Positions 1 to 14,473 of a stretch of DNA of 64,000 bases are shown in pieces. The stretch is from NCBI GenBank assembly GCA_964291285.2, contig OZ219788.1, forward strand, positions 128,001 through 192,000, given 5' to 3'. How positions within the stretch are numbered: position 1 is the first letter of the stretch; each line of letters starts with the position of its first letter. A program made the translations under genes and the position numbers. The stretch comes from Alphaproteobacteria bacterium. Lineage in GTDB: Bacteria; Pseudomonadota; Alphaproteobacteria; Bin95. Under the pieces are notes generated by a model, which was not told the origin of the DNA, did not search any database, and saw only the letters and a list, made by a program, of their open reading frames with translations.

Positions 1-149
1 TCGGCGACACCGCGCATGACCGACTCTTCGGGCGCGTGCGCGGAGGTCAGGACCTTCCCGACCCGGATGGCGCCGCCGGCATCACTGACCAGCGCGAAGT
101 CGGAAAAAGTCCCGCCGATGTCGATGCCGAGGCGATAGCTGGCGGTCAT
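1..149 (-). CDS. Hydantoinase/oxoprolinase family protein, N-terminal part (runs off window)
   Basis: Manual translation from ATG at 149: MTASYRLGIDIGGTFSDFALVSDAGGAIRVGKVLTSAHAPEESV, containing the GIDIGGTFxD family motif. Confidence 0.85.
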   Translation of the reverse strand, partial: MTASYRLGIDIGGTFSDFALVSDAGGAIRVGKVLTSAHAPEESVMRGVA

Positions 150-304
150 ATGGCGGGTCCCGAGGTTCACGGCATCCGGGGCAGTGCGCCGCCGGCAATT
201 TGCCCGGCATTCGACTGTAGCAACGCAGCGTCTGTCCGGACAAGCAAGTCGATCGTTCATAAAAATTAAGCAATAATTCTCTTAAGGGGATTGTATTTTC
301 AGAA

Positions 305-515
305 ATTGTGGTATGATGGGTGCGAGGGAGGAGGCATCCGGAGCCGCTTCCCGCCCGCGCCGGCCCGGCGCGGAACGACCCCGATTCAGCCGACAGGCGA
401 AGTGCGTCCTGCGCCTGCCTCGCGCCCGCGCAATCAGGCGCGCGAACCGCGCCGGCGCCGACACCCGCCCGCGCCCGCACGCGATACGCGCGAAACAGGG
501 TCGCTCCCCGACGGG
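305..515 (+). repeat. Left copy of a diverged inverted repeat (promoter plus leader); partner at ~12090-12320
   Basis: Blocks identical to the reverse complement of the right copy: ATTGTGGTATGATGG (305-319 vs 12306-12320), TCCGGAGCCGC (337-347 vs 12278-12288) and the 28-bp CGCGCAATCAGGCGCGCGAACCGCGCCG (427-454 vs 12165-12192). Confidence 0.85.
309..317 (+). promoter_or_regulatory. Putative extended -10 promoter TGgTATGAT
   Basis: TGn+TATGAT at the edge of an AT-rich tract; conserved in the inverted copy at 12308-12316. Confidence 0.5.
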
Positions 516-616
516 GCGGCGCTGCCCGTCAACGCCGCCCTCCCGGCCCGGCGCGGTCCCGTACCGCTGCCGGGCCTGCCTGTCGAACGCCAGCGGAACG
601 AAAGGACCCGCACCCC

Positions 617-1606
617 ATGCCCGTCATCGAGCCCGCCGTCGCGCTTTCCACCCGCCAGGAAGCCTTCTGCCGCCACTACACCGCCTCCGGCAATGCCGCA
701 CACGCCGCAAGGCAGGCCGGATATTCGGAGCGCTCCGCCCGCCAGACCGGATGCGCCCTGCTGGAGCGGCCCTGGATCGTCGAGCGCGTGCGCCGCATCC
801 GCCTGTCGTGGCGGCGCACCGAACGCAACGAGGCCCGCATCCTGCTCGCCCGCTCGGAGCAGGCCTGGGACGCCGCCGTCGCCAGCGGCTCGGCCTACAT
901 GATGCTGCGGGTGCTGCGCTTCCAGGCCGAGATCGCCGGGCTTGTCAGTCCGGCCGGCGCGAACCGGGCCCGCCTCTGGCCGCTGCCGCACGAGGACGAG
1001 TTCGGCGAGATCGAAGCGGGCGAGGCGCAGGAGACCGGCACCGAGCCCGGACCGCTCGCAGACGCCGTGCGCCGGGGGCGGGACCGGGCCGAACGAGCGC
1101 TCGCCCGCCACTGCGAGCGGCGCGAGGAGATGGAGGCGCAGGAGGGCTTCGACGGGGCCGCGCATGAGGAGGCCGCCCGCAGGCTCGCCGCGGCCGTCGA
1201 GGAGCGCACCCGCCTGCCCTTCGGCTTCGGCCCCCCGCCCGCGCCGGCAAACGACCTGCCGCCGGCCGACGACCCGCCCGAGGAAACCTACGAATACTGC
1301 CCCTGGGCCGCTGCCGACACGCCCGGCCACGAGGACAGCACCGACGACGACCGGGCCGACGGCGCCGAACATGACTGGCTCTACCAGCGCCGCAACGGCT
1401 ACGACGACATCTACGACCCCTGGGCCCCGGAGGAAGTCGAGGAGCGCAGGCAGAGCCGCCTCGAACGGGAAGAGCGGGGCGGCGACGAAGACGACGATTG
1501 GAGCGGACCGGCGGCGAGGGGGAAGAAGCAGAAAAAGAAGAAGGGGAAGAAGCGGAGGACCGGCCCGGAGAACGCCGGTTCCGCCCCGGACCATGACAAA
1601 ACATGA
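617..1606 (+). CDS. Terminase small subunit-like (HTH) protein with long acidic/basic disordered tail
   Basis: SD-like AAAGGA at 601-606; LSTRQEAFCRHYTASGNAAHAARQAGYSERSARQTGCALLERPWI matches the Terminase_2 N-terminal pattern (F...Y...NA..AA..AGYS...A...G..LL..P.I). Confidence 0.7.
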   Translation: MPVIEPAVALSTRQEAFCRHYTASGNAAHAARQAGYSERSARQTGCALLERPWIVERVRRIRLSWRRTERNEARILLARSEQAWDAAVASGSAYMMLRVLRFQAEIAGLVSPAGANRARLWPLPHEDEFGEIEAGEAQETGTEPGPLADAVRRGRDRAERALARHCERREEMEAQEGFDGAAHEEAARRLAAAVEERTRLPFGFGPPPAPANDLPPADDPPEETYEYCPWAAADTPGHEDSTDDDRADGAEHDWLYQRRNGYDDIYDPWAPEEVEERRQSRLEREERGGDEDDDWSGPAARGKKQKKKKGKKRRTGPENAGSAPDHDKT

Positions 1607-1618
1607 CATTCCATGACA
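1592..1618 (+). repeat. Three CATGACA direct repeats at 10-bp period
   Basis: CATGACA at 1592, 1602 and 1612, overlapping the stop codon of the TerS-like gene. Confidence 0.9.
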
Positions 1619-1676
1619 CGGCGCGGGGAGTCCCGCCGACCGTCGGGGCCTTGCCGGGCCGGCGGAAACGGGCCAA

Positions 1677-2510
1677 TTGGCCGGACCGCGCGAACGCGCC
1701 GACCGCCGGGGAGCGCCGCCCTTGCCGATTCCGTCCATCCGCCGCCGCCTGTCCGGGCTCGCCGCCGGCTTTGCGTTCGTCCTGGGCCTCACCGCGCCCG
1801 GCTTCGGCGCGGACGGGCTGACGGTGTTCGCCGCGGCCAGCCTGAAGAACGCGATGGACGAGGTCGCCGCCGGGTTCGAGCGGGAGACCGGCCATGCCGT
1901 CACGGTCTCGCTTGCCGGCTCCTCCGCGCTCGCCCGCCAGATCCGGTACGGCGCGCCGGCGGACGTCTTCATTTCCGCCAATCCCGGCTGGATGGACGCG
2001 CTGGAGCGGGAAGGCCTCATCGACCCGGCAAGCCGCTTCGACCTGCTGGGCAACGCCCTCGTGCTGGTCGCCCACGGCCGGGACGCGCCGCCGGTGGAGA
2101 TCGCGCCGGGCATGGATATCGCCGCCATGCTTGGCGAGGGCCGCCTCGCCATGACGCTCGTGGACGCGGTGCCCGCCGGGATCTACGGCAAGGCGGCGCT
2201 GGAGTCGCTGGGCGTCTGGGAGGCCGCCGCGCCGAAGGTGGCGCAGGCGGACAATGTGCGCGCGGCGCTGGCGCTGGTCGCTTCCGGCGAGGCGCCGTTC
2301 GGGATCGTCTATGCCACCGACGCCGCGGCCGACGACAATGTGACCGTCGCCGGCGCCTTCCCGGCGGACACGCACCCGCCCATCGTCTATCCCGCCGCCG
2401 CCGTGGCCGCGAGCCGCAATCCGCTCAACCGGCGCTTCCTGGCCTGGCTTCGCGGCCCGGCCGCGCGGGCGGCATTCGAGCGGCAAGGCTTTGCCGTCGC
2501 CTTCGAGTAG
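1677..2510 (+). CDS. modA: Molybdate ABC transporter substrate-binding protein (start uncertain)
   Basis: Signal peptide, VFAAASL, AGSSALARQI..GAPADVFISA and VPAGIYG motifs; upstream of modB. Confidence 0.93.
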   Translation: MAGPRERADRRGAPPLPIPSIRRRLSGLAAGFAFVLGLTAPGFGADGLTVFAAASLKNAMDEVAAGFERETGHAVTVSLAGSSALARQIRYGAPADVFISANPGWMDALEREGLIDPASRFDLLGNALVLVAHGRDAPPVEIAPGMDIAAMLGEGRLAMTLVDAVPAGIYGKAALESLGVWEAAAPKVAQADNVRAALALVASGEAPFGIVYATDAAADDNVTVAGAFPADTHPPIVYPAAAVAASRNPLNRRFLAWLRGPAARAAFERQGFAVAFE

Positions 2511-2519
2511 AATTGCCCC

Positions 2520-3212
2520 ATGGACTGGTTGAGCCCCGAGGAGTGGCAGGCGGTCGCACTGTCCCTGCGCGTCGCCTTCTGGGCAACGCTCGCGAGCCTG
2601 CCGCCCGGCGTGCTGGCCGCCTATGCGCTCGCGCGCTGGCGGTTCCCGGGCCGGCAACTCCTGAACGGGCTGGTGCATCTGCCGCTCATCCTGCCTCCGG
2701 TGGCGACGGGCTACCTGCTGCTGCTGGCGTTCGGGACGCGCGGCCCGCTCGGCAGCCTCCTGGAAGACGTCGGCATCGTCTTCGCCTTCCGCTGGACGGG
2801 CGCGGCGCTGGCGGCGGCGGTCATGGCGTTCCCGCTCATGGTCCGCGCCATCCGCCTTTCCATAGAGGCGGTGGACCCCAAACTCGAACAGGCGGGCGCG
2901 ACGCTCGGCGCCTCGGGCCCTTGGGTCTTCACGACGGTGACCCTGCCGCTGGTGCTGCCGGGCATCGTCGCGGGCACGATCCTCGCCTTCGCCAAGGCGA
3001 TGGGCGAGTTCGGCGCGACGATCACCTTCGTCTCGAACATTCCCGGCCAGACGCAGACCCTGCCGACGGCGATCTACACCTTCCTCCAGGTGCCGGGCGG
3101 CGAGGCGTCCGCGCTCCGCCTTGTGGTCATCGCCATCGTGGTCTCCATGGCCGCGCTGCTGCTCTCCGAGCTCGTCGCGCGGCGCGTGGCGAGACGGGTG
3201 GCCGGCGCATGA
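2520..3212 (+). CDS. modB: Molybdate ABC transporter permease
   Basis: HLPLILPPV, GEFGATITF..NIPGQTQTLP motifs. Confidence 0.95.
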   Translation: MDWLSPEEWQAVALSLRVAFWATLASLPPGVLAAYALARWRFPGRQLLNGLVHLPLILPPVATGYLLLLAFGTRGPLGSLLEDVGIVFAFRWTGAALAAAVMAFPLMVRAIRLSIEAVDPKLEQAGATLGASGPWVFTTVTLPLVLPGIVAGTILAFAKAMGEFGATITFVSNIPGQTQTLPTAIYTFLQVPGGEASALRLVVIAIVVSMAALLLSELVARRVARRVAGA

Positions 3213-4294
3213 CGCTCTCCGTCGCCATCCGCCACGCCTTCCCCGGCTTCGAGCTCGACATTTCCTTCGAGGCGCCGCCGGGCGTGACCGTGCTGTTCGG
3301 CCGCTCCGGCTCCGGCAAGACGACGACCGTCAACGCCGTCGCAGGGCTGCTGAGGCCGAAAGCCGGGCGCGCGGTCGCGGACGGCTGGGTGCTGTTCGAC
3401 ACGGAGCGCGGCGCATGGCTGGCGCCCCACCGCCGCCGGCTCGGCTACATCTTCCAGGAAGGGCGGCTCTTTCCGCATCTCACCGTGCGCCAGAACCTGC
3501 TCTACGGGCGCTGGTTCGCGGCGAAGGGCGGCCCGGCCGAGGACATGGGGCGCATCGTCGACATGCTCGGTATCGGGCACCTGCTGGGCCGCCGCCCCGG
3601 AGCGCTGTCGAGCGGGGAAAAGCAGCGGGTCGCCATCGGGCGCGCCCTGCTCGCGAGCCCCCGGCTCATTCTCGCCGACGAGCCGCTGGCCTCGCTTGAC
3701 GAAGCGCGCAAGGCCGAAATCCTGCCCTATTTCGAGCGCTTGCGCGACGAGGTGTCGGTGCCGGTCCTCTATGTCAGCCATTCGGCGGCGGAGGTGGCAC
3801 GGCTTGCAACCACGGTAATCGCGCTCCGGGACGGGCGCGTGCTGCGCCAGGGGCCGGCGGTCGAGGTGCTGGGCGACCCGACGGTCACGCCGCTCGGCGC
3901 GCGCGGTGCGGGCGCGGTGCTCGAAGCGGCCGTCGTGCGCCACCACGCCGACGGACTGTCGGAGATCGAGGCGGGCGGCGTGCGCCTGTTCCTGCCGAGA
4001 GTGCCGCATGCGCCCGGCAGCCGGATCCGGGTCCGGATCGCGGCGCATGAGGTGCTGTTGTCGCGAAAGGAGCCGGAAGGACTGTCGGCGCTGAACATCC
4101 TGCCGGGCACGGTCGAATCGGTCCGGGCGGGCGAGGGGCCGGGCGCCATCGTCTCCGTGCGCACGGCGGCCGGCACGATCCTCTCCCGTTCGACCCGCCG
4201 GTCAACGGAAGCCCTGGGGCTGGCGGAGGGCATGTCCTGCCATGCCGTCATCAAGACCGTCGCCATTGCCCCGGAGGGCGTGGGCGGTGCCTGA
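3209..4294 (+). CDS. modC: Molybdate ABC transporter ATP-binding protein
   Basis: ATGA overlap with modB; Walker A GRSGSGKT, GYIFQEGRLFPHL, C-terminal TOBE/Mop domain (LSALNIL...AVIKTVA). Confidence 0.95.
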   Translation: MTLSVAIRHAFPGFELDISFEAPPGVTVLFGRSGSGKTTTVNAVAGLLRPKAGRAVADGWVLFDTERGAWLAPHRRRLGYIFQEGRLFPHLTVRQNLLYGRWFAAKGGPAEDMGRIVDMLGIGHLLGRRPGALSSGEKQRVAIGRALLASPRLILADEPLASLDEARKAEILPYFERLRDEVSVPVLYVSHSAAEVARLATTVIALRDGRVLRQGPAVEVLGDPTVTPLGARGAGAVLEAAVVRHHADGLSEIEAGGVRLFLPRVPHAPGSRIRVRIAAHEVLLSRKEPEGLSALNILPGTVESVRAGEGPGAIVSVRTAAGTILSRSTRRSTEALGLAEGMSCHAVIKTVAIAPEGVGGA

Positions 4295-4313
4295 GCCGCA
4301 GCGCTCCCGCGAG

Positions 4314-5453
4314 CTATCCGCCGCTATGCGTGGAACCGGGCCGCTGCCTGCGCCGGATATAGACACGCATTCCTTCTGCGGCCAGGCCCGCGATCAGGCC
4401 CGCCAGCGCGCCCAGGAACACCGTCGCGAGCGCGGCCGCGGCGATGACGGGCCGGCAATCCGGGCGGGCGTCGAGCAGCCGCGGGCTCAGGATCAGGTCG
4501 GCCGCCGCATAGATCAGGAGCGCGCCGACGACTGCCGGCGGTATCGACATGAGCAACCCGACGATCTCCGGCCCCATCGCGACGACGGTGCCGCAGGCAA
4601 CCGCCATGATCAGCGGCGCACCGATGCCGCGCGCGCCGAACCTTCTGTGCGCGGCGATGCCGCCGGCCCCGTGGCACATCGGCATGGCGCCCAGCGGCGC
4701 GAGCAGGAGGTTCATCAGTCCGTTCGTCGCCGCGAGCCTCCGTTCGCTCACCCGTGCGGCCCGGTCGGGATAGAGCGAACGGGCGACCGCGGCGGCAACC
4801 ACCACGGCGTTGAGCAGGGTGAGCGGCAGTTGCGCAAGCACGCCCGAAAGCACCGCATGGACGGTGTCGATGCCGCCGGCCGGCGCCGCCGGAGCCATCG
4901 GCGGCCCTGCATGGGGAACCAGCAGCACGGCGCCTATGACGACAAGCGGAACCCACGGCCCTCGCGGCAGAAGGAGGGCGAGCGAGAGCACGGCCAGCGA
5001 AGCCAGGGCCATCACCCAGTCATGGCCCATCAGGCCGAAGGCCACCGTTCCCAGCATCAGGCCGAGCCCCGCCTGAAGGCCCGTGACCACCGACTGGGGT
5101 ATCGCGCGGGTCGCCTTTTCGAACGACGGGACGGCCGCGAGCAGGAGGAGGACCGCCCCGACGATGCCGCCCGCCCAGGCGGTTTCGGCCGCGGTGAGGC
5201 CGCCCGCAATGATGACCGCCCCGAGAGCCTTCATGGGCTGGACGGATACAGGCATGCGATAGACGGCGGCGACCAGGACATATCCGGCCGCGAAGCCGGC
5301 GAAAACCGGAGTCGGTGCGAGAATGCCCGCGCCCACCGCGGCCACGACATAGGGCAGGAAGGTGCCGAGATCGCCGAAGGCGCCCGACAGCTCCCCGCTG
5401 GCCGAGCGCAGGCGCTCCAGGCGCCCGACGTCTTGTGCTCCGAACCCAGGCAT
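4314..5453 (-). CDS. MOT1-family molybdate (sulfate/molybdate) transporter
   Basis: ELSGAFGDLGTFLP, VQPMKA and MPMCHGAGG motifs of MFS_MOT1; hydrophobic. Confidence 0.88.
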   Translation of the reverse strand: MPGFGAQDVGRLERLRSASGELSGAFGDLGTFLPYVVAAVGAGILAPTPVFAGFAAGYVLVAAVYRMPVSVQPMKALGAVIIAGGLTAAETAWAGGIVGAVLLLLAAVPSFEKATRAIPQSVVTGLQAGLGLMLGTVAFGLMGHDWVMALASLAVLSLALLLPRGPWVPLVVIGAVLLVPHAGPPMAPAAPAGGIDTVHAVLSGVLAQLPLTLLNAVVVAAAVARSLYPDRAARVSERRLAATNGLMNLLLAPLGAMPMCHGAGGIAAHRRFGARGIGAPLIMAVACGTVVAMGPEIVGLLMSIPPAVVGALLIYAAADLILSPRLLDARPDCRPVIAAAALATVFLGALAGLIAGLAAEGMRVYIRRRQRPGSTHSGG

Positions 5454-5588
5454 TCTCGTTATCTTGTTGTTTTTGCGCCTGTCCCGCACCCAAGCCTACA
5501 GGCGCGCGACGCCCTGCGAAAGGCCGAACGGACGCCGCCGCAAAACCAGGAAGTTCCTGCTGATTTTGTCGATTTAATGCTCTTTTTA

Positions 5589-5620
5589 TGCAATTCTTCC
5601 GAATCGTGGGAGGAATTGCA
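5589..5620. promoter_or_regulatory. Imperfect inverted repeat overlapping the tupB RBS
   Basis: TGCAATTCTTCC-N8-GGAGGAATTGCA in the AT-rich divergent MOT1/tupB intergenic region. Confidence 0.5.
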
Positions 5621-5622
5621 GG

Positions 5623-6330
5623 GTGGAAAGCTTCTGGAGGATACTCGGAGAGGCGGTCAGCCTGATTCTCGCCTGGGACTCCGACCTCATCGAAATCGTC
5701 GGCCTGTCGCTTCGCGTCACGCTGAGCGCCGTCGCCATTTCCTGCCTCATCGGCCTGCCGCTCGGCGCGGCGGTGGGCGCCTTCCGCTTTCCGGGCCGGA
5801 CAGCGGTCATCGTCGTGCTGAATTCGCTGATGGGCCTGCCGCCCGTCGTGGTGGGACTGATCGCCTATCTGATGCTGTCGGCCGCCGGGCCGCTCGGCCC
5901 GCTGGAGCTGCTCTACACGCCTGCGGCCATGATTATCGCCCAGACGATCCTCGTCACGCCCATCGTGGCGGCCTTGAGCCGGCAGGTGGTGGAGGACTGC
6001 TACCGCGAATATGCCGAGCAGTTCGACTCGCTCGGCGTCGGCCCCTTCGACCGGGTCGCCGCCCTCCTGTGGGACGCCCGCTACAGCCTGCTCACCGTAG
6101 CGCTCGCCGGTTTCGGCCGCGCGGTGGCGGAGGTGGGCGCCGTCATCATCGTCGGCGGCAACATCAACCATGTCACGCGCGTGATGACCACGACGATTGC
6201 GCTCGAGACCTCGAAGGGCAATCTCGAACTGGCGCTGGCGCTCGGCGTCGTGCTTCTCGCCATTGCCGTGACGGTAAACGGGGCCGTCATGACGCTCCGG
6301 GCCTCGGCGGTCCGGATGGCCTATGCCTGA
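5623..6330 (+). CDS. tupB: Tungstate ABC transporter permease
   Basis: LNSLMGLPPVVVGL, GFGRAVAEVGAVIIVGGNI..VTRVMTTTIALETSKG motifs. Confidence 0.92.
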   Translation: MESFWRILGEAVSLILAWDSDLIEIVGLSLRVTLSAVAISCLIGLPLGAAVGAFRFPGRTAVIVVLNSLMGLPPVVVGLIAYLMLSAAGPLGPLELLYTPAAMIIAQTILVTPIVAALSRQVVEDCYREYAEQFDSLGVGPFDRVAALLWDARYSLLTVALAGFGRAVAEVGAVIIVGGNINHVTRVMTTTIALETSKGNLELALALGVVLLAIAVTVNGAVMTLRASAVRMAYA

Positions 6331-7114
6331 GGCGGCGTTCCATGTGGCCGCGCCGGTGCTCCCGGTAACAGCGGATGCTCCGGCTCTGCTGAGCGCGCGG
6401 GGCCTCTGCTTCGATGCCGGCGGCAAGCGGCTGATCGACGGGATCGATATCGATATCCGCCCCGGCAGGCGGACGGTGGTGATGGGGGCCAACGGCGCCG
6501 GCAAGAGCCTGCTGCTGCGCCTTCTGCACGGCCTGATCCGGCCGACGGCGGGCGAAGTGCTGTGGCAGGGACGCCCGCTCGACCGGGACGGCCGCCTCGC
6601 GCAGGCGATGGTGTTCCAGCGCCCGGTGCTGCTGCGCCGTTCGGTGCTCGCCAACCTCCGCTTCGCGCTTTCCGTGCGCGGCCTCTCGGGACCGGAGCGC
6701 GCGGCGCGGGAGGCCGAAGCGATGGAGCGCTCCCGCCTCGGCGGTCTGGCGGACCGGCCGGCGCGCGTACTCTCCGGCGGCGAACAGCAGCGGCTTGCGG
6801 TCGTGCGCGCGCTCGCCTGCGCGCCGGGCCTGCTGTTCCTCGACGAACCGACGGCCAGCCTCGATCCGGGTTCGACCCACGCCATCGAGCGACTGGTCCG
6901 GGAAGCTCATGAAAGCGGCGTCGCCATCGTGCTCGTCACGCATGACACCGGCCAGGCGCGGCGCCTCGGCGACGATCTGGTGTTCCTGCATCGGGGGCGG
7001 GTCGTGGAGACGGGATCCGCGCCGGATGTGCTGAATGCGCCGCGCTCCGAAGCCGCCCGCGCCTGGCTCGAGGGCCGCCTCTATCTCGACGCCCCCTCCG
7101 CACCCAGGGGCTGA
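6323..7114 (+). CDS. tupC: Tungstate ABC transporter ATP-binding protein
   Basis: GANGAGKS, MVFQRPVLLRRSV, LSGGEQQR, DEPT; lies between tupB and tupA. Confidence 0.88.
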   Translation: MPEAAFHVAAPVLPVTADAPALLSARGLCFDAGGKRLIDGIDIDIRPGRRTVVMGANGAGKSLLLRLLHGLIRPTAGEVLWQGRPLDRDGRLAQAMVFQRPVLLRRSVLANLRFALSVRGLSGPERAAREAEAMERSRLGGLADRPARVLSGGEQQRLAVVRALACAPGLLFLDEPTASLDPGSTHAIERLVREAHESGVAIVLVTHDTGQARRLGDDLVFLHRGRVVETGSAPDVLNAPRSEAARAWLEGRLYLDAPSAPRG

Positions 7115-7133
7115 GCCCGGATCGAAGCGCGAG

Positions 7134-7958
7134 ATGGCCAGACGCATTCTCCTTTCCCTCGCCGCCATTGCGTTCATCTCCCTGAGCCTGATCCATCCGG
7201 CTGCGGCCGACCGCTTCATCATCGTCCAGTCCACCACCTCGACCCAGAACTCCGGCCTCTACGACCACATCCTGCCGCTGTTCCGGGAGCGGACCGGCAT
7301 CGAGGTGCGGGTCGTCGCGGTCGGCACCGGCCAGGCGCTTCGGAACGCCGCCAATGGCGACGGCGATGTGCTCCTCGTCCACGCCAGGTCCGACGAGGAA
7401 CGCTTCGTTTCCGACGGACACGGCATCAGCCGCGCCGATCTCATGTACAACGACTTCGTCATCGTCGGGCCTGCCGCCGACCCCGCGGGCGTGGCAGGCA
7501 TGGAGGACGCCGTGGCGGCGCTGGCCCTGATAGCGGAGGCGGAAGCGCCCTTCGTCTCGCGCGGCGACGACAGCGGCACGCACAAGGTCGAGCTCGAACT
7601 CTGGGAGGAGGCGGGCGTCGATGTCGGAGCCGCTTCGGGAGGCTGGTATCGCGAGACGGGTTCGGGCATGGGCGCGGCGCTCAACACCGCCAGCGGCATG
7701 GGCGCCTATGCGATGACCGACCGCGCCACCTGGACGGGCTTCGCCAACAGGAACGGCCAGCGGATTCTGGTCGAGGGCGATCCGAGGCTCTTCAACCAGT
7801 ACGGCATCGTGCTGGTGAATCCCGAACGGCACCCGAACGTGAAAGCCGGCCTCGGCCGGCTGTTCGTCGACTGGGTGCTCTCCGAGGAAGGACAGGCGGC
7901 CATCGCGTCCTACAGGGTGGACGGCCAGCAGGTCTTCTTTCCGAACGCCGGCGGTTGA
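7134..7958 (+). CDS. tupA: Tungstate ABC transporter substrate-binding protein
   Basis: Signal peptide; STTSTQNSGL, GTGQAL, MYNDFVIVGP and SRGDDSGTH motifs. Confidence 0.92.
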   Translation: MARRILLSLAAIAFISLSLIHPAAADRFIIVQSTTSTQNSGLYDHILPLFRERTGIEVRVVAVGTGQALRNAANGDGDVLLVHARSDEERFVSDGHGISRADLMYNDFVIVGPAADPAGVAGMEDAVAALALIAEAEAPFVSRGDDSGTHKVELELWEEAGVDVGAASGGWYRETGSGMGAALNTASGMGAYAMTDRATWTGFANRNGQRILVEGDPRLFNQYGIVLVNPERHPNVKAGLGRLFVDWVLSEEGQAAIASYRVDGQQVFFPNAGG

Positions 7959-7997
7959 TGGATGCGAGCGGCCCTTTGCTGCCATAAGGAATGCGGC

Positions 7998-9035
7998 ATG
8001 ACACGGCTCTTGCGGTCCCTGCTGGCGGTTGCGCTGATTGGCCTCGCCATGCCGGGCGAGGCGCGCAGCGTCCGCGACTCCGCCGGGAGGGTCGTCGAAA
8101 TCCCGGACCGGGTGGAGCGCGTGTTTGCAGCCGGGCCGCCCGCCTCGATCCTCGTCTATGCGCTCAAGCCCGCCGCACTGCTCGGATGGCCGCGCGCGCT
8201 CCGGGACTACGAGAGGCCCTATATCGCCGAACCCTGGCGCGACCTTCCCGAGACCGGGCGGCTCACCGGGCGCGGCGGAGACGCGAACCTCGAACGGGTA
8301 ATTGCGCTCGGGCCCGACCTCATCGTCGATTTCGGCTCCGTGCGGGACACCTATATCGACCTCGCCAACCGCGTCCAGGACCAGACCGGCATCCCCTATG
8401 TCCTGGTCAACGGGCGCTTTTCCGAAACGGCGGCATCGCTCCGCCTCCTGGGCGAGGCACTGGGCGTCCCGGACCGCGGAGAGAGGCTTGCGGCGGACGT
8501 CGAGGCGACCTTCGCGGAACTCCGGGCCGCGCTCGGAGCCGTGCCCGTGAAGGAGCGGCCACGCGTCTATCTCGCCCGCGGCCCGGACGGGCTCGAGACG
8601 GGGCTGAAGGGCTCCATCAACACGGAGATCATCGAGCTCGCCGGCGGTCGTAACGTCGCCGATGCGCCCGGCCGCTACGGGCTGGTCCGGGCCTCGCCCG
8701 AGCAGGTGATCGTGGCCGATCCGGACACCATCGTCACCTGGGACAGGACCTTCTACGACCGTATCTGGCGCGAACCGCTCTGGCAGGGAATAACGGCGGT
8801 CCGCCGGGGCCGGGTCTATCTCTCGCCGACCGCGCCGTTCGGCTGGATCGACCGCCCGCCCTCCATCAACCGGATGATGGGCCTGAAATGGCTCGCCGGG
8901 CTCTTCTATCCCGAGTTGTGGCCGGGCGACCTGCGGGCCGAAACGCGCGCCTTCTACAGGCTCTGGTACCATGTCGATCTCGGCGGGTCGGACCTCGACC
9001 GGCTCCTCGAATGGACAAAGGGGCGCGCGCCCTGA
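7998..9035 (+). CDS. Class III (FecB/BtuF/MolA-like) ABC substrate-binding protein
   Basis: Signal peptide, DSAGRVVEIP...ERV, ANLERVIALGPDLI, AVRRGRVY..P.APFGWIDRPPS. Confidence 0.88.
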   Translation: MTRLLRSLLAVALIGLAMPGEARSVRDSAGRVVEIPDRVERVFAAGPPASILVYALKPAALLGWPRALRDYERPYIAEPWRDLPETGRLTGRGGDANLERVIALGPDLIVDFGSVRDTYIDLANRVQDQTGIPYVLVNGRFSETAASLRLLGEALGVPDRGERLAADVEATFAELRAALGAVPVKERPRVYLARGPDGLETGLKGSINTEIIELAGGRNVADAPGRYGLVRASPEQVIVADPDTIVTWDRTFYDRIWREPLWQGITAVRRGRVYLSPTAPFGWIDRPPSINRMMGLKWLAGLFYPELWPGDLRAETRAFYRLWYHVDLGGSDLDRLLEWTKGRAP

Positions 9036-10045
9036 ATTCCGCCCGCAAGCGCGGGCAAGCGGGAGCCGGAACGGCGCTCTGGCTCGCGGGCGCGCTGGTC
9101 CTCGGCAGCGTCGCCGCGCTGCTGGTCGGGCCCTATCCGCTCGGGCTCGTCGAAGCCTTGTCGGTGCTGGCCGGAGGCGAACGCGCCGGCCAGGCCGAAA
9201 CCGTGCTGCTGGCGATCCGGCTTCCGAGGGTGGCCGCCTCGCTGCTGGTCGGCGCGGCGCTGGCGGCGGCGGGCGCCTGCTACCAGACGATCTTCCGCAA
9301 CCCGCTCGTATCGCCAGACATTCTCGGCGTGTCCGCCGGGGCAGGCCTCGGTGCGGTGCTCGGGATCTTCCTGTCGCTTCCCGTCGCCGCGATCCAATTG
9401 CTGGGCTTTGCGGGCGGGCTCGGCGCGGTCGCTCTCGTCGGTTTCGTCGCCGCCGCGGTGAAGACGGGAGACCGCACCCTCGTTCTCGTGCTGGCGGGCG
9501 TGGTGGTCGGCGCGCTCGCCGGGGCGGCGACCTCGCTGCTCAAGGTCCTCGCCGATCCGTACGACCAGCTCCCCGCCATCACCTTCTGGCTGCTCGGCAG
9601 CCTCGCCGGGGTGAAGGCTGCGGACCTCATGCCCGCCGCGCCGGTCGTGGCCGCCGGCCTCGTGCCGCTGGTCCTGCTGCGCTGGCGGATCAACGTGCTG
9701 GCGCTCGGCGACGAGGAGGCGCGCGCGCTCGGCATCGAGGCCGGGCGGCTCCGCCTCGTCGTCATCCTCTGCGCCACACTCGTTACGGCGAGCGTCGTGG
9801 CGGTCGCGGGCGTCGTCGGCTGGGTCGGGCTCGTCATCCCGCATATCGCCCGCATGCTCGTCGGCCCCGGCTTCGGCCGGCTCCTGCCGGCGGCGGCCCT
9901 GCTCGGCGCCGGATACATGCTGGCGGTCGATACGCTCGCGCGCACGATTTCGGCCGCGGAGGTGCCGCTCGGCATTTTGACGGCCGTGGTGGGCGCGCCC
10001 TTCTTCCTCTGGCTGCTTGCACGGGGCCGGCGCGCATGGGCATGA
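9032..10045 (+). CDS. FecCD/BtuC-family ABC permease (probable CTG start)
   Basis: IRLPRV, QTIFRNPLVSPDILGVSAGA, GDEEARALG, GWVGLVIPHIAR; CTGA overlap with the upstream stop. Confidence 0.88.
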   Translation: MNSARKRGQAGAGTALWLAGALVLGSVAALLVGPYPLGLVEALSVLAGGERAGQAETVLLAIRLPRVAASLLVGAALAAAGACYQTIFRNPLVSPDILGVSAGAGLGAVLGIFLSLPVAAIQLLGFAGGLGAVALVGFVAAAVKTGDRTLVLVLAGVVVGALAGAATSLLKVLADPYDQLPAITFWLLGSLAGVKAADLMPAAPVVAAGLVPLVLLRWRINVLALGDEEARALGIEAGRLRLVVILCATLVTASVVAVAGVVGWVGLVIPHIARMLVGPGFGRLLPAAALLGAGYMLAVDTLARTISAAEVPLGILTAVVGAPFFLWLLARGRRAWA

Positions 10046-10857
10046 CCGTCGAAACCCGCGACCTCGCGATCGGCTATCCGGGGCGCGAGGTCGGATCCGG
10101 CATAACGCTCGCCGCCGGGCCGGGCGCGGTGCTCTGCCTGCTCGGCCCCAACGGGTCCGGCAAGACGACCCTGTTCAGGACGCAGCTCGGCCTCATTCCG
10201 GCGCGGGGCGGACAGGTGCTGCTGGAGGGCCGGCCGCTCGACCGCCTCTCGCGCGCCGAGGTCGCGCAGCGCGTCGCCTATGTGCCGCAGGCGCACGCGC
10301 CGCCCTTCGCATGGTCCGCTTTCGAGGTCGTGCTGATGGGCCGGACGGCGCGGCTCGGGCTCTTCTCGCAGCCGGGCGAGGCCGACCGCGAAGCGGCGCG
10401 TGCCGCGCTGGAGCGCCTGCGCATCGGCGGTCTGGCGGAGGCGGACTACACCCGCCTCTCCGGCGGCCAGCGCCAGCTCGTGCTGGTCGCCCGGGCGCTC
10501 GCGCAGGAAACGCCGGTGCTCATCATGGACGAGCCGACCGCCAGCCTCGATTTCGGCAATCAGGCGCTGGTGCTCCGGGAGATTGCCGGGCTCGCCGCAG
10601 ACGGGCTCACGGTCATTCTCTCGACCCACGATCCCGACCACGCCTTCGCCGTCGGCACCGATGTCGCCCTCTTGCATGAGGGGCGCGTGAGGGCGACAGG
10701 CCCGCCCGCCTCGGCCCTCACCGAAGAGGCGCTGTCCACCGTTTACGGGGTCGATGTCCGGGTGGAGCGGCTCGCCGGCGGCAGGACGGTCTGCGTGCCG
10801 TCGCTCTCGCGTCAGGGCGAGAGCCAGCGCACCGACCCGGCTTCGGACAGGTCGTAG
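10042..10857 (+). CDS. FecE-like ABC ATP-binding protein
   Basis: GPNGSGKT, LSGGQRQ, MDEPTASLDFGNQ, STHDPDHA. Confidence 0.9.
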   Translation: MTVETRDLAIGYPGREVGSGITLAAGPGAVLCLLGPNGSGKTTLFRTQLGLIPARGGQVLLEGRPLDRLSRAEVAQRVAYVPQAHAPPFAWSAFEVVLMGRTARLGLFSQPGEADREAARAALERLRIGGLAEADYTRLSGGQRQLVLVARALAQETPVLIMDEPTASLDFGNQALVLREIAGLAADGLTVILSTHDPDHAFAVGTDVALLHEGRVRATGPPASALTEEALSTVYGVDVRVERLAGGRTVCVPSLSRQGESQRTDPASDRS

Positions 10858-11705
10858 CCGCCCATCGCGGCGGCCTTGCGCCGGAAGGCGCCGCTGCCCG
10901 CGAAGGCCATGAGCGCCTGCACCCGGTCGGTGAAATAGGCCCGCCGGTCGATCAGCAGGTCGAACCGCTCGCTGACCAGCGGCAGGAAAGGCAAGTGGAA
11001 CTGGCGCGCCATCGCCTCGATGCCGGGGGCCGCATCTGCCTCGCCCGCGGCGACCGCCGCCGCCGCATCGCTCTCGGTCCGCGCCAGCTCCGCGGAGGGA
11101 ATCAGGTCCGACGCCGTCAGCCCTTCCTTCGACAGGAGCGCCTCGAAGAGCGCCGCCGCGCCCGCCCCCGGCTGGCGCATGACGACCCGCCGGCCCCGGA
11201 GGTCGGACATGCAGCGCACCTGGCTGCGCATCGCCTCCGAGAGCACGAGCCCCCGCGCCCGGCCGGCCCATGCGACCAGCACCGAACCGCGCAGGCCGCG
11301 CGCAGCAACGGTCCGGACATTCCAGTCCGTTTCCTCCGGTATGTGCAGCCCGGCAAGCGCGGCGCGGCCGCCGGCGAAGGAGTCCAGGCCGTCGAGGCTG
11401 CCGTTCCAGAGCGTCGCAAGCCCCGAGCCGGATTCGCGCACCGCCCAGTCGAGGAGCGGGTCGTGGGAGCCGGTCAACACCTCCGGCCGCTCGGGGGACG
11501 CGGCGTCGCCGCCGCCCTCGATCCACGCCAGGATCTCCGTGCGCGGGAAGAGCAGCTTGCCGGTGATCCGCCGGTGCGGAATCCCGCCCGCGGCGGCGAG
11601 ATCGTACACCTTGCGTTCGCGCACGCGCAGAAGCGCCGCCACCTCCTTCGTCGTGAGGTAAGGCGGCTGCCCGCCGCCGGTTTCTTCGGGAAAGTCCTGA
11701 GCCAT
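10812..11705 (-). CDS. Excisionase-type HTH (HTH_17) plus PBP-like (molybdate-binding superfamily) transcriptional regulator
   Basis: YLTTKEVAALLRVRERKVYDL...IPHRRITGKLLFPR followed by GSHDPLL, GSLDGL, RQPGAG, ERFDL, GGYD. Confidence 0.88.
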   Translation of the reverse strand: MAQDFPEETGGGQPPYLTTKEVAALLRVRERKVYDLAAAGGIPHRRITGKLLFPRTEILAWIEGGGDAASPERPEVLTGSHDPLLDWAVRESGSGLATLWNGSLDGLDSFAGGRAALAGLHIPEETDWNVRTVAARGLRGSVLVAWAGRARGLVLSEAMRSQVRCMSDLRGRRVVMRQPGAGAAALFEALLSKEGLTASDLIPSAELARTESDAAAAVAAGEADAAPGIEAMARQFHLPFLPLVSERFDLLIDRRAYFTDRVQALMAFAGSGAFRRKAAAMGGYDLSEAGSVRWLSP

Positions 11706-11807
11706 GGTTCCCGGGATTAATACCACTGTTGACGGGTCGATACCGACGAAGCCGCGGCCCGCTTCGGACCGGGGCGGCGCAACGCGGCCAGCGGACCTCC
11801 CGGCGGA

Positions 11808-11874
11808 TGTCATGAGATGTCATGTTTTGTCATGGTCCTCCTGCCATGTGTCATGAGATGTCATGTTCTGCATG
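11808..11874 (-). repeat. CATGACA arrays (TGTCATG on + strand) at 10-bp period: 3 + 2 exact copies and 1 degenerate
   Basis: TGTCATG at 11808, 11818, 11828, 11849 and 11859; TGCATG at 11869; GGACCATGACAAAACATGACAT is shared with 1588-1609. Confidence 0.9.
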
Positions 11875-12075
11875 CGCAGGGGTCATATGCTGTAGCCGTT
11901 TCAGGCATGAGGTCGTCCACTCTTTGGTCTCTTTCTGTATCTTGCGTTCACCGTCGCCCCGGCCCCGGAGCCGGGGCTCGTCCCTGACCGTTGCAGCCCG
12001 GTGGAGAGGGCGGAGGATGGACCCCGGCTCTCCGCTCCGCTCCGGTCGGGGTGACGGTTGAGGTTTTGCGGTCAT
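11851..12075 (-). CDS. Short hypothetical ORF (74 aa), possibly a deletion remnant
   Basis: Strong SD AAGGAGG 4 nt before the ATG; ends HDIS* inside the CATGACA array, like HDKT* of the TerS-like gene. Confidence 0.35.
   Translation of the reverse strand: MTAKPQPSPRPERSGEPGSILRPLHRAATVRDEPRLRGRGDGERKIQKETKEWTTSCLKRLQHMTPAHAEHDIS
11950..12058. repeat. Inverted pair of CGTC-type REP-like palindromes
   Basis: ACCGTCGCCCCGGCCCCGGAGCCGGGGCTC (+, 11950-11979) and ACCGTCACCCCGACCGGAGCGGAGCGGAGAGCCGGGGTCCAT (-, 12017-12058). Confidence 0.6.
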
Positions 12076-12089
12076 CGTTCCTCCTTACT

Positions 12090-12320
12090 CCGACGGGGAG
12101 CGGGTCCCTTTTCCGCGCGTATCCCGCGCGGGCGCCTGTGCACGTGCCGGCGCGCGTGTCGCGGCGGCGCGGTTCGCGCGCCTGATTGCGCGCGCGAGGC
12201 GGAGGGCGCACGTCTCCCGTCAGCTTCTCACGTGTTTTCAGAAACCGGCGCCGCTCGGCCGCGCAACGCCCGGGGACGCGGCTCCGGAGTCCGCTTCCCT
12301 GGGGACCATCATACCACAAT
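12090..12320 (-). repeat. Right copy of the diverged inverted repeat (promoter plus leader); partner at 305-515
   Basis: Same conserved blocks in the same order on the reverse strand. Confidence 0.85.
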
Positions 12321-12462
12321 CCGCCAGATGTTAAGCTCAAATCACGAACAAAATCCAAAAATACTGGAAATTGTTCATATTTCATGGATACAGACAGTGG
12401 ATAACGGTCAGTGAATAGTAAATAGCAGGCGGGCCAGAGCGCTATCCACCAGCCACCGGCAG

Positions 12463-13569
12463 TCAGCCTGCCGGGAAATAGTCCTCGCAACTGCCCTCGC
12501 GGCGCACATCCGCCGTCGCGCAGTGAAGGCCGCCGCCAAAGGCGTAGGCGTCGCGGAAGGGAACCGGGACCACCTCCAGGCCCAGCCTGTCGATCTGGTC
12601 CATCTGGTGGACCTCGCTCGCCTCCACGCAGACCGTCTTCGGGTCCAGCACCAGCACGTTCATCGACAGCCACACGCTCGAATAGCAAAGCGGCGGCGGG
12701 CTGTTATGCGCCGGGCGGGCCGCATCGACGATCTCCCAGCCATTGCGGTTGAAGACTTCGCGCTGCTCGTCCGGCAGGCGGCGCTCGGGATTGTTGAGGA
12801 CGAGGCCCGGCCGGAGCGGCGTGAAGCTCGCGTCGATGTGGATCGGATAGGGATCGCCCGGAAAGTTGAGCGCATGGACACGGTGGTCCGGGAAATGCCG
12901 GCGTAGCCACTCGATACCGGTGAGGTTCGTGGTGAAACCGTGCTGGACGAAGAGGTCGCGCCCGAAACGCAGCACGTCGGCCGCGTCGAACAGCGGCTCC
13001 GCCTCGGTGGTGACGAAATCCTTCGCCGCCACCATCTCCAGACGCTCCTCGATGGTGATGTCGTCGGAGAGGTAGTCCGGCTTGTAGGAGGCGTCCGTGA
13101 GGCGCGGCTTCGGCGCCGCCTCGTGGCGCATGTTCGGGTCATCGTCCCAGAAGCGCTTCAGCAGCGGGCGGTAGCAGAGATATTCGAACCAGCGTGAGCG
13201 GTAGGACATGGTCGCTTCGAGCATCTCGGAGCCGACCGTCAGCAGCACGTCGCGCGGCGGCTGGCAGCCGAACATCGAGCCGTGGCTCCAGTCCGGGGTC
13301 GCAATAGCCCGGTTGAAGTCTATGGGGTCCGGACGGTCCACCCGGATGCCGCGCTTCTCCAGCATGGCGGCGAAGGCGTCCAGCTGCTCGTTGGCGCGGT
13401 CCACGGTCTCCTGCGACCGGGGCCCGTGAACGCCGCGCATGTCGCTGTCCAGCGGGATTTTCGGATCGCTGGCGGGCTCCGGCGGCGGGATACAGCAACC
13501 GTCCGCCCGCCCCACGATCACATGGCGCAGCGGGTCCCACTCGTTCCAGCTGTTGACGACCGTCTTCAC
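12463..13569 (-). CDS. Amidinotransferase (glycine/inosamine-phosphate amidinotransferase family)
   Basis: VNSWNEWDPLRHVIVG, PRDVLL..G, PLFDAAD, HIDA and GGGLHC.T motifs; GTG start. Confidence 0.9.
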   Translation of the reverse strand: MKTVVNSWNEWDPLRHVIVGRADGCCIPPPEPASDPKIPLDSDMRGVHGPRSQETVDRANEQLDAFAAMLEKRGIRVDRPDPIDFNRAIATPDWSHGSMFGCQPPRDVLLTVGSEMLEATMSYRSRWFEYLCYRPLLKRFWDDDPNMRHEAAPKPRLTDASYKPDYLSDDITIEERLEMVAAKDFVTTEAEPLFDAADVLRFGRDLFVQHGFTTNLTGIEWLRRHFPDHRVHALNFPGDPYPIHIDASFTPLRPGLVLNNPERRLPDEQREVFNRNGWEIVDAARPAHNSPPPLCYSSVWLSMNVLVLDPKTVCVEASEVHQMDQIDRLGLEVVPVPFRDAYAFGGGLHCATADVRREGSCEDYFPAG

Positions 13570-13582
13570 GCTTTTCCCCCGT

Positions 13583-14473
13583 TCAACCGCCGGCGCGGAT
13601 GGTCTCGATGATCGAGGAGAAATCGCGCGGGCCGTTGCCCCCGGCCACATGGAGCGCCATCAGCGCCTCGGCGAGCGCGCCCATCGGCGTACCGGTGCCG
13701 CTCTTCATCGCGGCGTCTCTCGCAAGCCGCAGGTCCTTGACCATCATGTCGGCGGTGAACCCCGGCTGGAACCCGTTATTGGCGGGCGAGGCCGGAACCG
13801 GACCCGGTACCGGGCAGTAACTCGTCACCGCCCAGCTCTGGCCGGAGGAGTTGGCGACCACGTCGAAGAGTGTCTGGCGGTCGAGGCCCAGATTATCGGC
13901 GAGCGTGAAGCCCTCGCAGACGCCCAGCATGCTGATCGCCAGCATCATGTTGTTGCAGACCTTCGCCGCCTGGCCGTTGCCGGCCGGGCCGCAATGCACG
14001 ATCCGCGCGCCCATATGCTCCAGGATCGGGCGGGCCTTCTCGAAAGCCGCCTCCGGCCCGCCGACCATGAAGGTGAGCGTGCCCGCGACGGCTCCACCCG
14101 TGCCGCCCGAGACTGGCGCATCGACCATCTCAAGGCCTCGCGCCGCCGCTTCCCCGGCAACGTCGCGGGCCGTGGCGACGTCGATGGTCGAGCAGTCGAT
14201 GAGCAGCGTGCCCGGCTTCACCGCGTCCAGGACTTCGCCGGCACCCAGATAGACATCGCGCACTTCCGGGCCTGCCGGAACCATGGTGACGACCGCTTCC
14301 GCACCATCGACGGCCGCCGCCGCCGAGGCCGCCCGGGTGGCTCCGGCCTCGATGATGTCCGCCAGCGCCGCCTCCACCGGGTCCCAGGCGGTTACCGCGT
14401 GCTGGGCCGTCATCAGGTTTCGGGCCATGGGACCGCCCATATTGCCGACCCCGATAAATGCGATCCGCGCCAT
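13583..14473 (-). CDS. mmsB: 3-hydroxyisobutyrate dehydrogenase
   Basis: FIGVGNMGGPMA, DAPVSGG, GNGQAAKVCNNM, YCPVPGP. Confidence 0.93.
   Translation of the reverse strand: MARIAFIGVGNMGGPMARNLMTAQHAVTAWDPVEAALADIIEAGATRAASAAAAVDGAEAVVTMVPAGPEVRDVYLGAGEVLDAVKPGTLLIDCSTIDVATARDVAGEAAARGLEMVDAPVSGGTGGAVAGTLTFMVGGPEAAFEKARPILEHMGARIVHCGPAGNGQAAKVCNNMMLAISMLGVCEGFTLADNLGLDRQTLFDVVANSSGQSWAVTSYCPVPGPVPASPANNGFQPGFTADMMVKDLRLARDAAMKSGTGTPMGALAEALMALHVAGGNGPRDFSSIIETIRAGG

Follow-up and report, generated by a model that had tools for sequence, protein, structure and literature searches.

A dispersed family of small-terminase-like gene cassettes with phased CATGACA arrays in a genus of uncultured Alphaproteobacteria

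Correia elements of Neisseria, promoter-bearing MITEs (miniature transposable elements with inverted repeats) and the REP/BIME, BOX and ERIC repeats occur in bacterial genomes in tens to hundreds of intergenic copies. They are modular, carry outward-reading promoters, affect neighbouring genes and serve as recombination substrates and as landing sites for insertion sequences (IS). Chromosomal satellites of the PICI, cf-PICI and PICMI types retain a packaging site and a small-terminase gene outside any complete phage. In phage SPP1, the packaging site pac consists of direct repeats in three sets, which extend over the promoters and the beginning of terS (PMC4737164). We analysed a window of 64,000 nucleotides of an alphaproteobacterial genome (contig OZ219788.1, G000:C4:128001-192000; genome G000, 6.13 Mb, 68 % GC, five contigs), in which two inverted copies of a repeated unit flank a cluster for the uptake of molybdenum and tungsten (Mo/W). 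The two copies belong to a previously undescribed family, some 100 self-contained intergenic cassettes, each with a promoter, a leader, a gene for a small-terminase-like (TerS-like) protein or its remnant, and phased CATGACA heptamers. In our preferred reading, held with a probability of roughly 0.55, the left window copy is a full-length and the right a reduced member, and the family would be a phage terS with a pac-like module turned into a dispersed repeat, the arrays acting as binding sites of the protein.

The units resemble Correia, MITE and REP-type repeats in copy number, intergenic site, modularity, promoters, recombination and the landing of IS elements (IS110-family and DDE_Tnp_1 elements in the leader), but they are larger (0.4-1.4 kb versus 0.03-0.2 kb), have neither terminal inverted repeats nor a duplication, be it TA or another, and their protein-coding master form makes a DNA-binding protein, not a transposase. 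Like the satellites with terS, they seem to keep a small-terminase gene and a putative packaging site apart from a complete phage, whereas integrase, attachment site, repressor and replication module are lacking, the size does not exceed 1.4 kb and about 100 copies are present per genome. A helper phage was not identified for the units. With the SPP1/SF6 pac module (G1P) they share the protein core type, a helix-turn-helix (HTH) with long helices (3ZQP/3ZQQ, 4ZC3, 2CMP), and a gene with its own promoters beside sets of short direct repeats (PMC4737164). Unlike in SPP1/SF6, no large terminase or head genes are adjacent, about 100 chromosomal copies replace one per phage, most copies are gene-less, and the units have a 210-aa acidic tail on the protein and a conserved leader of 210 nt.

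Census and architecture of the units

An iterated nhmmer profile detected 105 copies of the leader in G000, spread over all five contigs. The heptamer CATGACA was present 901 times, compared to about 316 occurrences expected from base composition; 252 neighbouring pairs on the same strand were spaced exactly 10 nt, and 150 arrays of two to six units with a strict 10-nt period were counted, 94 of them with at least three units. An array followed on the same strand within 1.5 kb for 88 of the 105 leaders, versus 1.45 % of random positions, and 127 of the 150 arrays were located at most 2.5 kb downstream of some leader. A separate leader-array tally yielded at least one array for 87 leaders and at least two for 37. 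The well-defined units were without exception isolated intergenic cassettes (75/75), with neighbour distances that are approximate, as the underlying gene caller covers 61-70 % of the genome. Rfam, known phages, plasmids and IS elements gave no match to the unit, and no phage, plasmid or viral contig in the collections searched carried the unit or its type of TerS. Nothing on such a repeat family was found in the literature searched; the heptamer string itself is too common to search on. The original prediction, made from the letters of the window alone, had proposed a dispersed family with a protein-coding and a deleted form, without visible transposase or integrase and not recognised as a described IS or MITE. 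The 105 leaders, ten intact TerS-like genes and numerous short forms bear this out; the family is neither limited to the two window copies nor matched by the ends of a known IS or prophage.

Alignment of the two window regions recovered every block listed in that prediction, collinear and inverted. The identical block ATTGTGGTATGATGG lies at 305-319 in the left and at 12320-12306 in the right copy; further identical blocks are TCCGGAGCCGC and the ~28-nt GCGCAATCAGGCGCGCGAACCGCGCCG, a block GATACGCGCG..AGGG..CGCTCCCCG is common to both, and the arrays share 22 identical nucleotides, GGACCATGACAAAACATGACAT. The corresponding repeat pairs, I2 (305-352/12273-12320), I3 (414-458/12161-12205) and I4 (1588-1633/11793-11838), were among the longest of 493 inverted pairs in the window. 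The left copy encodes the expected TerS-like protein, a match to Pfam Terminase_2, and the ORFs (open reading frames) of both copies terminate at a TGA within a CATGACA unit. The right copy deviated from its first description: the CATGACA array is there, but as two arrays, and its 74-aa ORF exists, but is probably no gene, as discussed below. Coordinates are given in Table 1.

In ten aligned long copies the similarity begins at an AT-rich tract, TTGTTC..AATAATTC, about 45 nt ahead of the -35 hexamer, and stops 8-10 nt past the last CATGACA; the flanks are unrelated. Genome-wide, the shared 5' extension typically reaches 30-37 nt ahead of the start of the leader profile, and up to ~75 nt in one subfamily. 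The promoters consist of a -35-like hexamer, mostly TTGACA or TTGCAT, a 15-nt spacer and TGTGn-TATGAT, thus of the extended -10 type; the hexamers are retained across copies while the spacer sequence drifts. A rough count, by a pattern that missed variants such as TAGATA, found TAnnnT at 15 nt in 33 of 74 leaders and TG at -15/-14 in 31 of 74. A consensus promoter scan that demands spacers of 16-18 nt called neither window promoter; the spacer of the units has 15 nt. The terminator scan of the window called no terminator after either window array. The leader of ~210 nt is GC-rich, with the near-invariant core ..GCGCGCAATCAGGCGCGCGAACCGCGCCGGCGC..GATACGCGCGAAACAGGG.. in alignments of 105 and of 86 distinct leaders, and is followed by a strong Shine-Dalgarno sequence (SD), an ATG and an ORF. 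Short units end in a conserved pre-array block, a first array, a spacer of 14-45 nt and a second array.

Most units other than those with intact genes are internally deleted or gene-less and have retained promoter, leader and arrays. Many short ORFs share the N-terminal residues of the TerS-like protein and then jump to a tail encoded by the array; in contigs of other copies, joints led from 373, 458, 502 and 687 to 1587-1592, every one ending at the array start. In most units, an SD-led ORF (16-341 aa) has its stop codon at offset +1, +11 or +21 of the array. Three CATGACA units at the 10-nt period supply a TGA and an ATG in all three frames, therefore any ORF entering an array stops there, and ending in an array is no proof of coding. 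Among 15 units caught by a sequence pattern, the pre-array block was read in frames 0, 1 and 2 in two, two and six units, and by no SD-led ORF in five. A block read in any frame or in none is conserved as nucleic acid, and for the same reason the 74-aa ORF of the right window copy is probably not a gene. The slot between leader and arrays may also be occupied by an ORF unrelated to TerS, family B (MTATDP.., 192-234 aa), which has no Pfam domain.

A leader conserved to this degree raises the question of a function as RNA. Rfam 15 gave no match at E <= 1 for window positions 1-14000, and the folding energy of the leader was close to that of shuffled sequences (minimum free energy z = -1.0 and -0.6). 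RNAalifold assigned -8.3 kcal/mol to 86 distinct leaders, with a covariation term of -0.14. In the 5' hairpin and the core hairpin together 87.7 % of the alignment cells were paired, compared to 86.8 % in shuffles, and the six pairs changed on both sides were equalled by 125 of 500 shuffles. Variation in the core hairpin mostly breaks pairs, while the 5' hairpin has compensatory variants. We conclude that the leader is kept as sequence and that support for a fold goes no further than the 5' hairpin. An N-terminal protein extension encoded by the leader was ruled out by indels that are not multiples of three and by the location of the upstream ATG inside the -10 box.

The units might nevertheless act mainly as RNA or expression cassettes, an alternative that we regard as tentative: a strong promoter would produce a long, conserved leader RNA, as regulatory 5' untranslated region (UTR) or as non-coding RNA of ~0.4-0.6 kb, with CAUGACA as protein-binding repeats or as a three-frame stop/start insulator, and the unit would be a portable promoter where the next gene is co-oriented, in the manner of Correia elements or MITEs with promoters. 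The maintained promoter hexamers amid drifting spacers fit this alternative, as do the leader, the most conserved part and kept in gene-less units, the frame-independent conservation of the pre-array block, the stops and starts offered in all frames by the 94 arrays with three or more units, the termination of SD-led ORFs at fixed array offsets, the lack of a called terminator after the window arrays, the compensatory variants of the 5' hairpin and the retention of a unit upstream of modA in 11 of 15 relatives. Against it stand the absence of support for a conserved fold and the strict 10-nt period, one helical turn, which together with the older association with a gene for a DNA-binding protein points to DNA. 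Furthermore, the downstream gene is co-oriented in only 41 of the 75 well-defined units and opposed in 34. In one RNA library that may contain DNA, the leader depth summed over assembled contigs was roughly proportional to copy number, which is no demonstration of transcription. A general donation of promoters to downstream genes was rejected on the orientation count. The original prediction had considered promoters provided for the cargo; this is possible for both window copies, which are co-oriented with the next gene and have no called terminator, but is not a general property of the family.

The leader is also entered by other elements. Five leaders (C1:640062 [L215], C1:858819, C2:878058, C2:1148603, C3:1276407) are split at profile position ~134 by an IS110-family element on the opposite strand, with the domains DEDD_Tnp_IS110 and Transposase_20; the invariant leader core appears to be a specific landing site of this element. 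About seven leaders end at profile position ~232 (GAATTAG): C3:686061, C2:676383, C3:941086, C1:257708, C3:195962, C4:199567 and C3:201483. The sequence after GAATTAG was the same in four of four copies checked, and the copy in L216 carries a 599-aa DDE_Tnp_1 transposase; this element is a second IS aiming at the leader. An ORF of 264-271 aa begins 25-27 nt past the arrays of several units (C1:735611, C2:730687, C2:1111238, C2:331522 and others), and a similar sequence, ..GTGGGCCCCTGG..GGACAGTTT.., follows several arrays, possibly another IS inserting beside them.

The TerS-like protein and the origin of the arrays

The TerS-like ORF of the window scored 45.2 bits against Terminase_2 (cut-off 26.1) over residues 11-70, with the HTH at the N-terminus; the PHROG match and the NCBI name were also terminase small subunit. 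The ten intact genes of G000 code for 329-336 aa. Residues 9-115 align with ordinary small terminases of 110-200 aa at 33-43 % identity. The AlphaFold 2 (AF2) model of the monomer had a predicted local distance difference test score (pLDDT) above 90 over residues 6-110, an HTH and two long helices (52-90 and 93-107) as candidates for the central oligomerisation core, moderate confidence for a helical hairpin at 146-199 and low confidence for the acidic tail. Foldseek aligned the model with 4ZC3 (TM score 0.85, root-mean-square deviation 1.6 Å, 41 % identity), 2CMP (TM score 0.82) and 3ZQQ, and the best matches in sequence and fold are the SF6/SPP1 small terminases 4ZC3, 2CMP and 3ZQQ/3ZQP. Among eight paralogues of exactly 329 codons (28 pairs), dN/dS was 0.24 overall, 0.18 in the core and 0.28 in the tail; the protein, tail included, is under purifying selection. 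The long form encodes a complete DNA-binding core of the small-terminase type with a lineage-specific acidic tail.

Phage small terminases are encoded next to the large-terminase gene in a head-morphogenesis module; none of the 75 well-defined units has such a neighbour. Five Pfam families of the large subunit (TerL) gave no match in G000 besides a single TerL-like gene. It belongs to a compact, divergent phage head module at G000:C2:85,300-91,400 (L121:11333-17366, minus strand), with a TerL_nuclease-like protein of 527 aa, a capsid-like protein, an S78 prohead protease and a portal-like protein. The unit closest to the TerL-like gene (C2:89.8-91.4 kb) is ~13 kb away, at C2:75.9-77.1 kb. Only four of 16 congeners have the TerL-like gene, hence the module is probably a prophage remnant. 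A conserved resident helper providing the large terminase was rejected, since this lone gene occurs in 4/16 congeners and the units in 14/16.

The arrays might still be working packaging starts of the pac type, at which the TerS-like protein recruits the large terminase of a phage or of a gene-transfer-agent-like particle to ~100 sites, so that host DNA is packaged and transduced by dispersed lateral transduction or satellite-like hitch-hiking. The TerS core looks complete and the tail is also under purifying selection, the combination of terS and phased repeats has the anatomy of a pac module, and a head module with TerL-like, portal, protease and capsid genes exists in G000. The mean spacing of units, 6.13 Mb/105, is ~58 kb; about one phage headful has this size. 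We consider this function unlikely: the TerL-like gene is far less widespread than the units, the TerL families gave no further match, no phage or viral contig carries this type of TerS or the unit, most units are gene-less, and the units lack an orientation bias. Copies on the plus and minus strands numbered 52 and 53, and 58 of 105 had the G-rich strand; neither strand nor replication polarity was seen, and a replication-linked polarity was rejected by the strand split. A wider proposal makes the module a self-propagating, transposase-free family, its ~100 copies beacons for packaging and recombination: TerS-like proteins on the arrays, with the terminase of a phage or particle producer, would start packaging about every 58 kb, and the same copies would drive rearrangement in the genus. 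This we hold to be doubtful; if true, whole symbiont genomes would be transducible.

The distribution of the components informs on their age. The congeners are uncultured Alphaproteobacteria represented by metagenome-assembled genomes, some of them from sponges, and sponge metagenomes contain the stretch. The leader was present in 14 of 16 congeners and in none of 24 genomes searched outside the genus, and the TerS-like protein was multi-copy in 12 of 16 congeners. Array pairs numbered 195 in G012 and 23 in G008, compared to 1, 0 and 0 in the congeners without leaders (G001, G003 and G013) and none for the reversed pattern as a control; the arrays track the family, in line with the preferred reading. 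In other lineages, relatives with 52-59 % identity have a strong promoter, a short AT-rich UTR without the GC-rich leader, the gene and an array of C(A/C)TGAC at a 10-nt period. Because promoter, TerS-like gene and arrays occur there without the leader, the module of gene and array is older than the leader. In loci of other genera (L102-L118), other short repeats are abundant upstream of TerS-like genes, e.g., the palindrome GTAGGGGAGGGTTTCAAACCCTCCCCTAC and the repeated CCGTCATTCCGACCG. The distant genome G033 has nine copies of a TerS-like gene of 274-289 aa (Terminase_2, 31 % identity to residues 9-113), for instance at C13:124.3-125.2 kb and C8:157.8-158.6 kb (L177, L178); the promoter there nearly touches the start codon, and a phased array is absent.

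According to the preferred reading, the cassette would descend from a phage packaging-initiation module, a terS with adjacent phased, pac-like repeats. An oligomer of the TerS-like protein may bind the arrays, which are in helical phase, both in its own unit and, in trans, in gene-less ones. The family would persist as largely selfish DNA by a duplication-free insertion route and gene conversion, and its main demonstrable effect on the host would be dispersed homology for recombination. In the window, recombination may have put the Mo/W cluster beside a new neighbour, with each of its two convergent operons now behind a strong, outward-reading, predicted promoter.

Several observations weigh against this reading. 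The link between protein and arrays is drawn from position and analogy. The isolated DNA-binding domain of SF6 binds weakly and almost without sequence preference (PMC4737164), so a sharply conserved heptamer is not predicted by that model. The SPP1 repeats are at the 5' end of terS and the unit arrays at the 3' end of the gene. G008 keeps its 23 array pairs and leaders, and no TerS-like gene was found there with the TerS query used. As the unrelated family B ORF can fill the slot between leader and arrays, the link of the arrays to TerS is not exclusive. The reading offers no explanation for the near-invariant leader, which is the best-conserved part. A large terminase conserved as a resident gene was not found. 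Finally, no array accompanies the TerS-like genes at the most distant multi-copy loci (G033, L103, L105), and a heptamer co-varying with the protein was not seen in distant relatives.

The arrays could alternatively be operators of a host winged-helix response regulator of the PhoB/OmpR type, with the units as members of its regulon. The reverse complement of the array unit, TGTCATG, resembles the Pho-box half-site CTGTCAT, and direct repeats at one-helical-turn spacing are binding sites of tandem response-regulator dimers. Arrays persist in G008, where no TerS-like gene was found, and lie 40-90 nt upstream of modA in many relatives. Such a role is very unlikely. The period is strictly 10 nt, while Pho boxes have 11 nt; congeners without the family lack the arrays, although a housekeeping regulator would remain in them, and 34 of 75 units point at the 3' end of the gene that follows; the arrays are tied to the unit and not to gene classes.

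Synteny breakpoints and the history of the Mo/W locus

Gains and losses of units between species involve no transposase, no terminal inverted repeats and no consistent target duplication; within a genome the units evolve in concert. Copies are dispersed with unrelated flanks and are polymorphic in presence between species. Transposase genes were not found in the units, whose ORFs are TerS-like, of family B (no Pfam match) or short frames. The ten aligned long copies had no terminal inverted repeats; the 5' end is the AT-rich tract with the promoter and the 3' end the direct-repeat array. Pairs of filled and empty sites showed no duplication of fixed length: case 7 had no repeat, cases 1/2 had an 84-nt replacement, case 59 had a direct repeat of 22 nt, and a replacement of 50 nt was also seen. 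The Y1 transposase domain PF01797 was absent from G000, with one fragment in one of 17 genus genomes, and a mobiliser of the IS200/IS605 or REP/RAYT type (HUH Y1) was rejected. The Y2 domain of IS91-type transposases (PF04986) had no match in G000, but control genomes gave none either. Paralogues in G000 are 89-99 % identical, versus 67-83 % for the orthologously placed copies that precede modA in other species, an excess that indicates concerted evolution or turnover.

The units mark synteny breakpoints. The flanks of units in relatives were non-collinear in G000 in 34 of 49 informative pairs, compared to 2 of 35 controls of the same spacing (69 % versus 6 %); some of these cases are the same locus in sister genomes, which makes the counts partly dependent on each other. 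The outward-facing units C4:371103 (minus) and C4:399614 (plus), separated by 28 kb, have more than 540 nt of upstream flank in common, which suggests an inverted segmental duplication. Another repeat of ~985 nt, probably a high-copy IS, is present in at least 13 places in G000 (e.g., C2:388189-389129 and C4:72828-73767) and matches G015 15626-16615, where it is located between the anchor gene described below and its neighbour.

As proposed originally, the cargo between the two window copies consists of oxyanion and metal uptake genes with their regulator, according to Pfam. The cluster is kept as a block in at least nine relatives, with modA and the regulator convergent and 6-12 kb apart. The longest ORF of the HTH_17-PBP_like regulator starts at 11813, overlapping the second array of the right unit; relatives align just from residue ~27-37, hence the ATG at 11705 is probably the start. 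Right of the island, the promoter end of the right unit abuts the stop (12463) of an amidinotransferase-like anchor gene that is single-copy in 17 of 17 genomes. In G012, G005, G010, G015 and G003 this gene abuts, at 10-100 nt, DNA that ends at C4:~119,430 in G000. As the two genes are adjacent in five relatives, G000 carries an insertion of 21 kb, which extends 8.6 kb to the left of the window with genes for NIPSNAP, HpaB, two acyl-CoA dehydrogenases and hydantoinase B/A. The right unit lies at the very edge of this G000-specific block and the left unit inside it; no unit is located at the left edge (C4:~119.43 kb).

Of 15 relatives, 11 have a unit co-oriented with modA, mostly 40-90 nt upstream, full-length in some and short in others, whereas a unit upstream of the regulator was found in G000, G006 and G012 only. 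By this distribution the left copy is an old resident upstream of modA and the right copy a younger gain. Eight relatives have a divergent gene opposite the regulator, at a distance of ~110 nt. The G000 counterpart of that gene is found at C5:174,852-176,048 with a unit of the same subfamily immediately after it, in the orientation expected for the reciprocal product; the right copy therefore looks like one product of unit-by-unit recombination. The junctions imply two steps, first an insertion into the spacer that duplicated no more than 2 nt, then a recombination between two units.

The original prediction had suggested that the element mobilised, inverted or provided promoters for the cargo. 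A role in rearrangement is in part retained, through breakpoints and recombination, but a single mobile island with the two copies as its ends is not supported. That the copies delimit a composite, transposon-like element which moved or inverted the Mo/W cluster in one piece is exceedingly unlikely, even though they face inward, in inverted orientation, on either side of a functionally coherent cluster, the right unit borders the G000-specific block, and G012 has the cluster with both flanking units twice on two contigs (C1:113.6-125.1 kb and C3:2.4-13.9 kb), with identical patterns of array coordinates. The left copy occurs in 11 of 15 relatives and the right in three genomes, and transposase, inverted ends and target duplication were not found for the pair. 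Neither a joint indicating inversion nor one skipping a whole unit was among the 15 contig joints listed, beyond which there are 91 more. The composite transposon was rejected because of the unequal age of the copies and because the 21-kb block has other limits than the pair of units.

Table 1. Coordinates of the two units and the Mo/W locus in the window
Feature	Position	Strand	Basis
Window part of the 21-kb G000-specific block (C4:119.43-140.46 kb), between two genes adjacent in five relatives	1..12460		
Left AT-rich upstream tract GTTCAT..AATAATTC, usual 5' limit of units	255..290	+	similarity of 10 long copies begins there
Left promoter, extended -10: -35-like TTGTAT 291-296, 15-nt spacer, TGTG 307-310, -10 TATGAT 312-317	291..317	+	read from sequence
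Left leader, predicted 5' UTR; core conserved to ~517, then subfamily-specific stretch with SD AAAGGA 601-606	324..616	+	nhmmer (match 285-517, contig 128285-128517), alignments
TerS-like gene, 329 aa: small-terminase core (residues ~6-115), acidic tail, basic C-terminus	617..1606	+	Pfam, PHROG, AF2, Foldseek, dN/dS
Left array, 3 x CATGACA at 1592, 1602 and 1612 (10-nt period); ORF stop TGA 1604-1606; unit end ~1628	1592..1618	+	
Mo/W and metal cluster: modABC (+), MOT1-type transporter (-), TupA-like ABC, Peripla_BP_2/FecCD/ABC, HTH_17-PBP_like regulator (-)	1677..11705		Pfam
Right arrays: array 1 (11865-11849) with units 11865-11859 and 11855-11849; 14-nt spacer; array 2 (11834-11808) with units 11834-11828, 11824-11818 and 11814-11808	11808..11865	-	
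Conserved pre-array block of the right unit, before the arrays	~11908-11866	-	
74-aa SD-led ORF of the right unit, probably incidental	11851..12075	-	no family match; block read in different frames in other copies
Right leader, predicted 5' UTR, ends in SD AAGGAGG	12076..12301	-	nhmmer (match 12344-12088, contig 140344-140088)
Right promoter (-35-like TTAACA 12334-12329, 15-nt spacer, TGTG, -10 TATGAT 12313-12308) and AT-rich tract	12308..12395	-	

Implications for the genus

With ~105 units of 0.4-1.4 kb, the family makes up a noticeable share of the intergenic DNA in an abundant, uncultured genus of sponge symbionts. The units are currently annotated just as scattered genes for a terminase small subunit and could be misread as prophage remnants. 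They explain much of the rearrangement in the genus, as judged from the excess of breakpoints over controls, and put strong predicted promoters ahead of genes such as modABC. A phage DNA-recognition module, in place of a transposase, can form the part that a high-copy repeat family conserves at its core. Should the arrays turn out to be sites of binding or packaging, the units would constitute a natural system that mobilises DNA across the whole chromosome of a host-associated bacterium.

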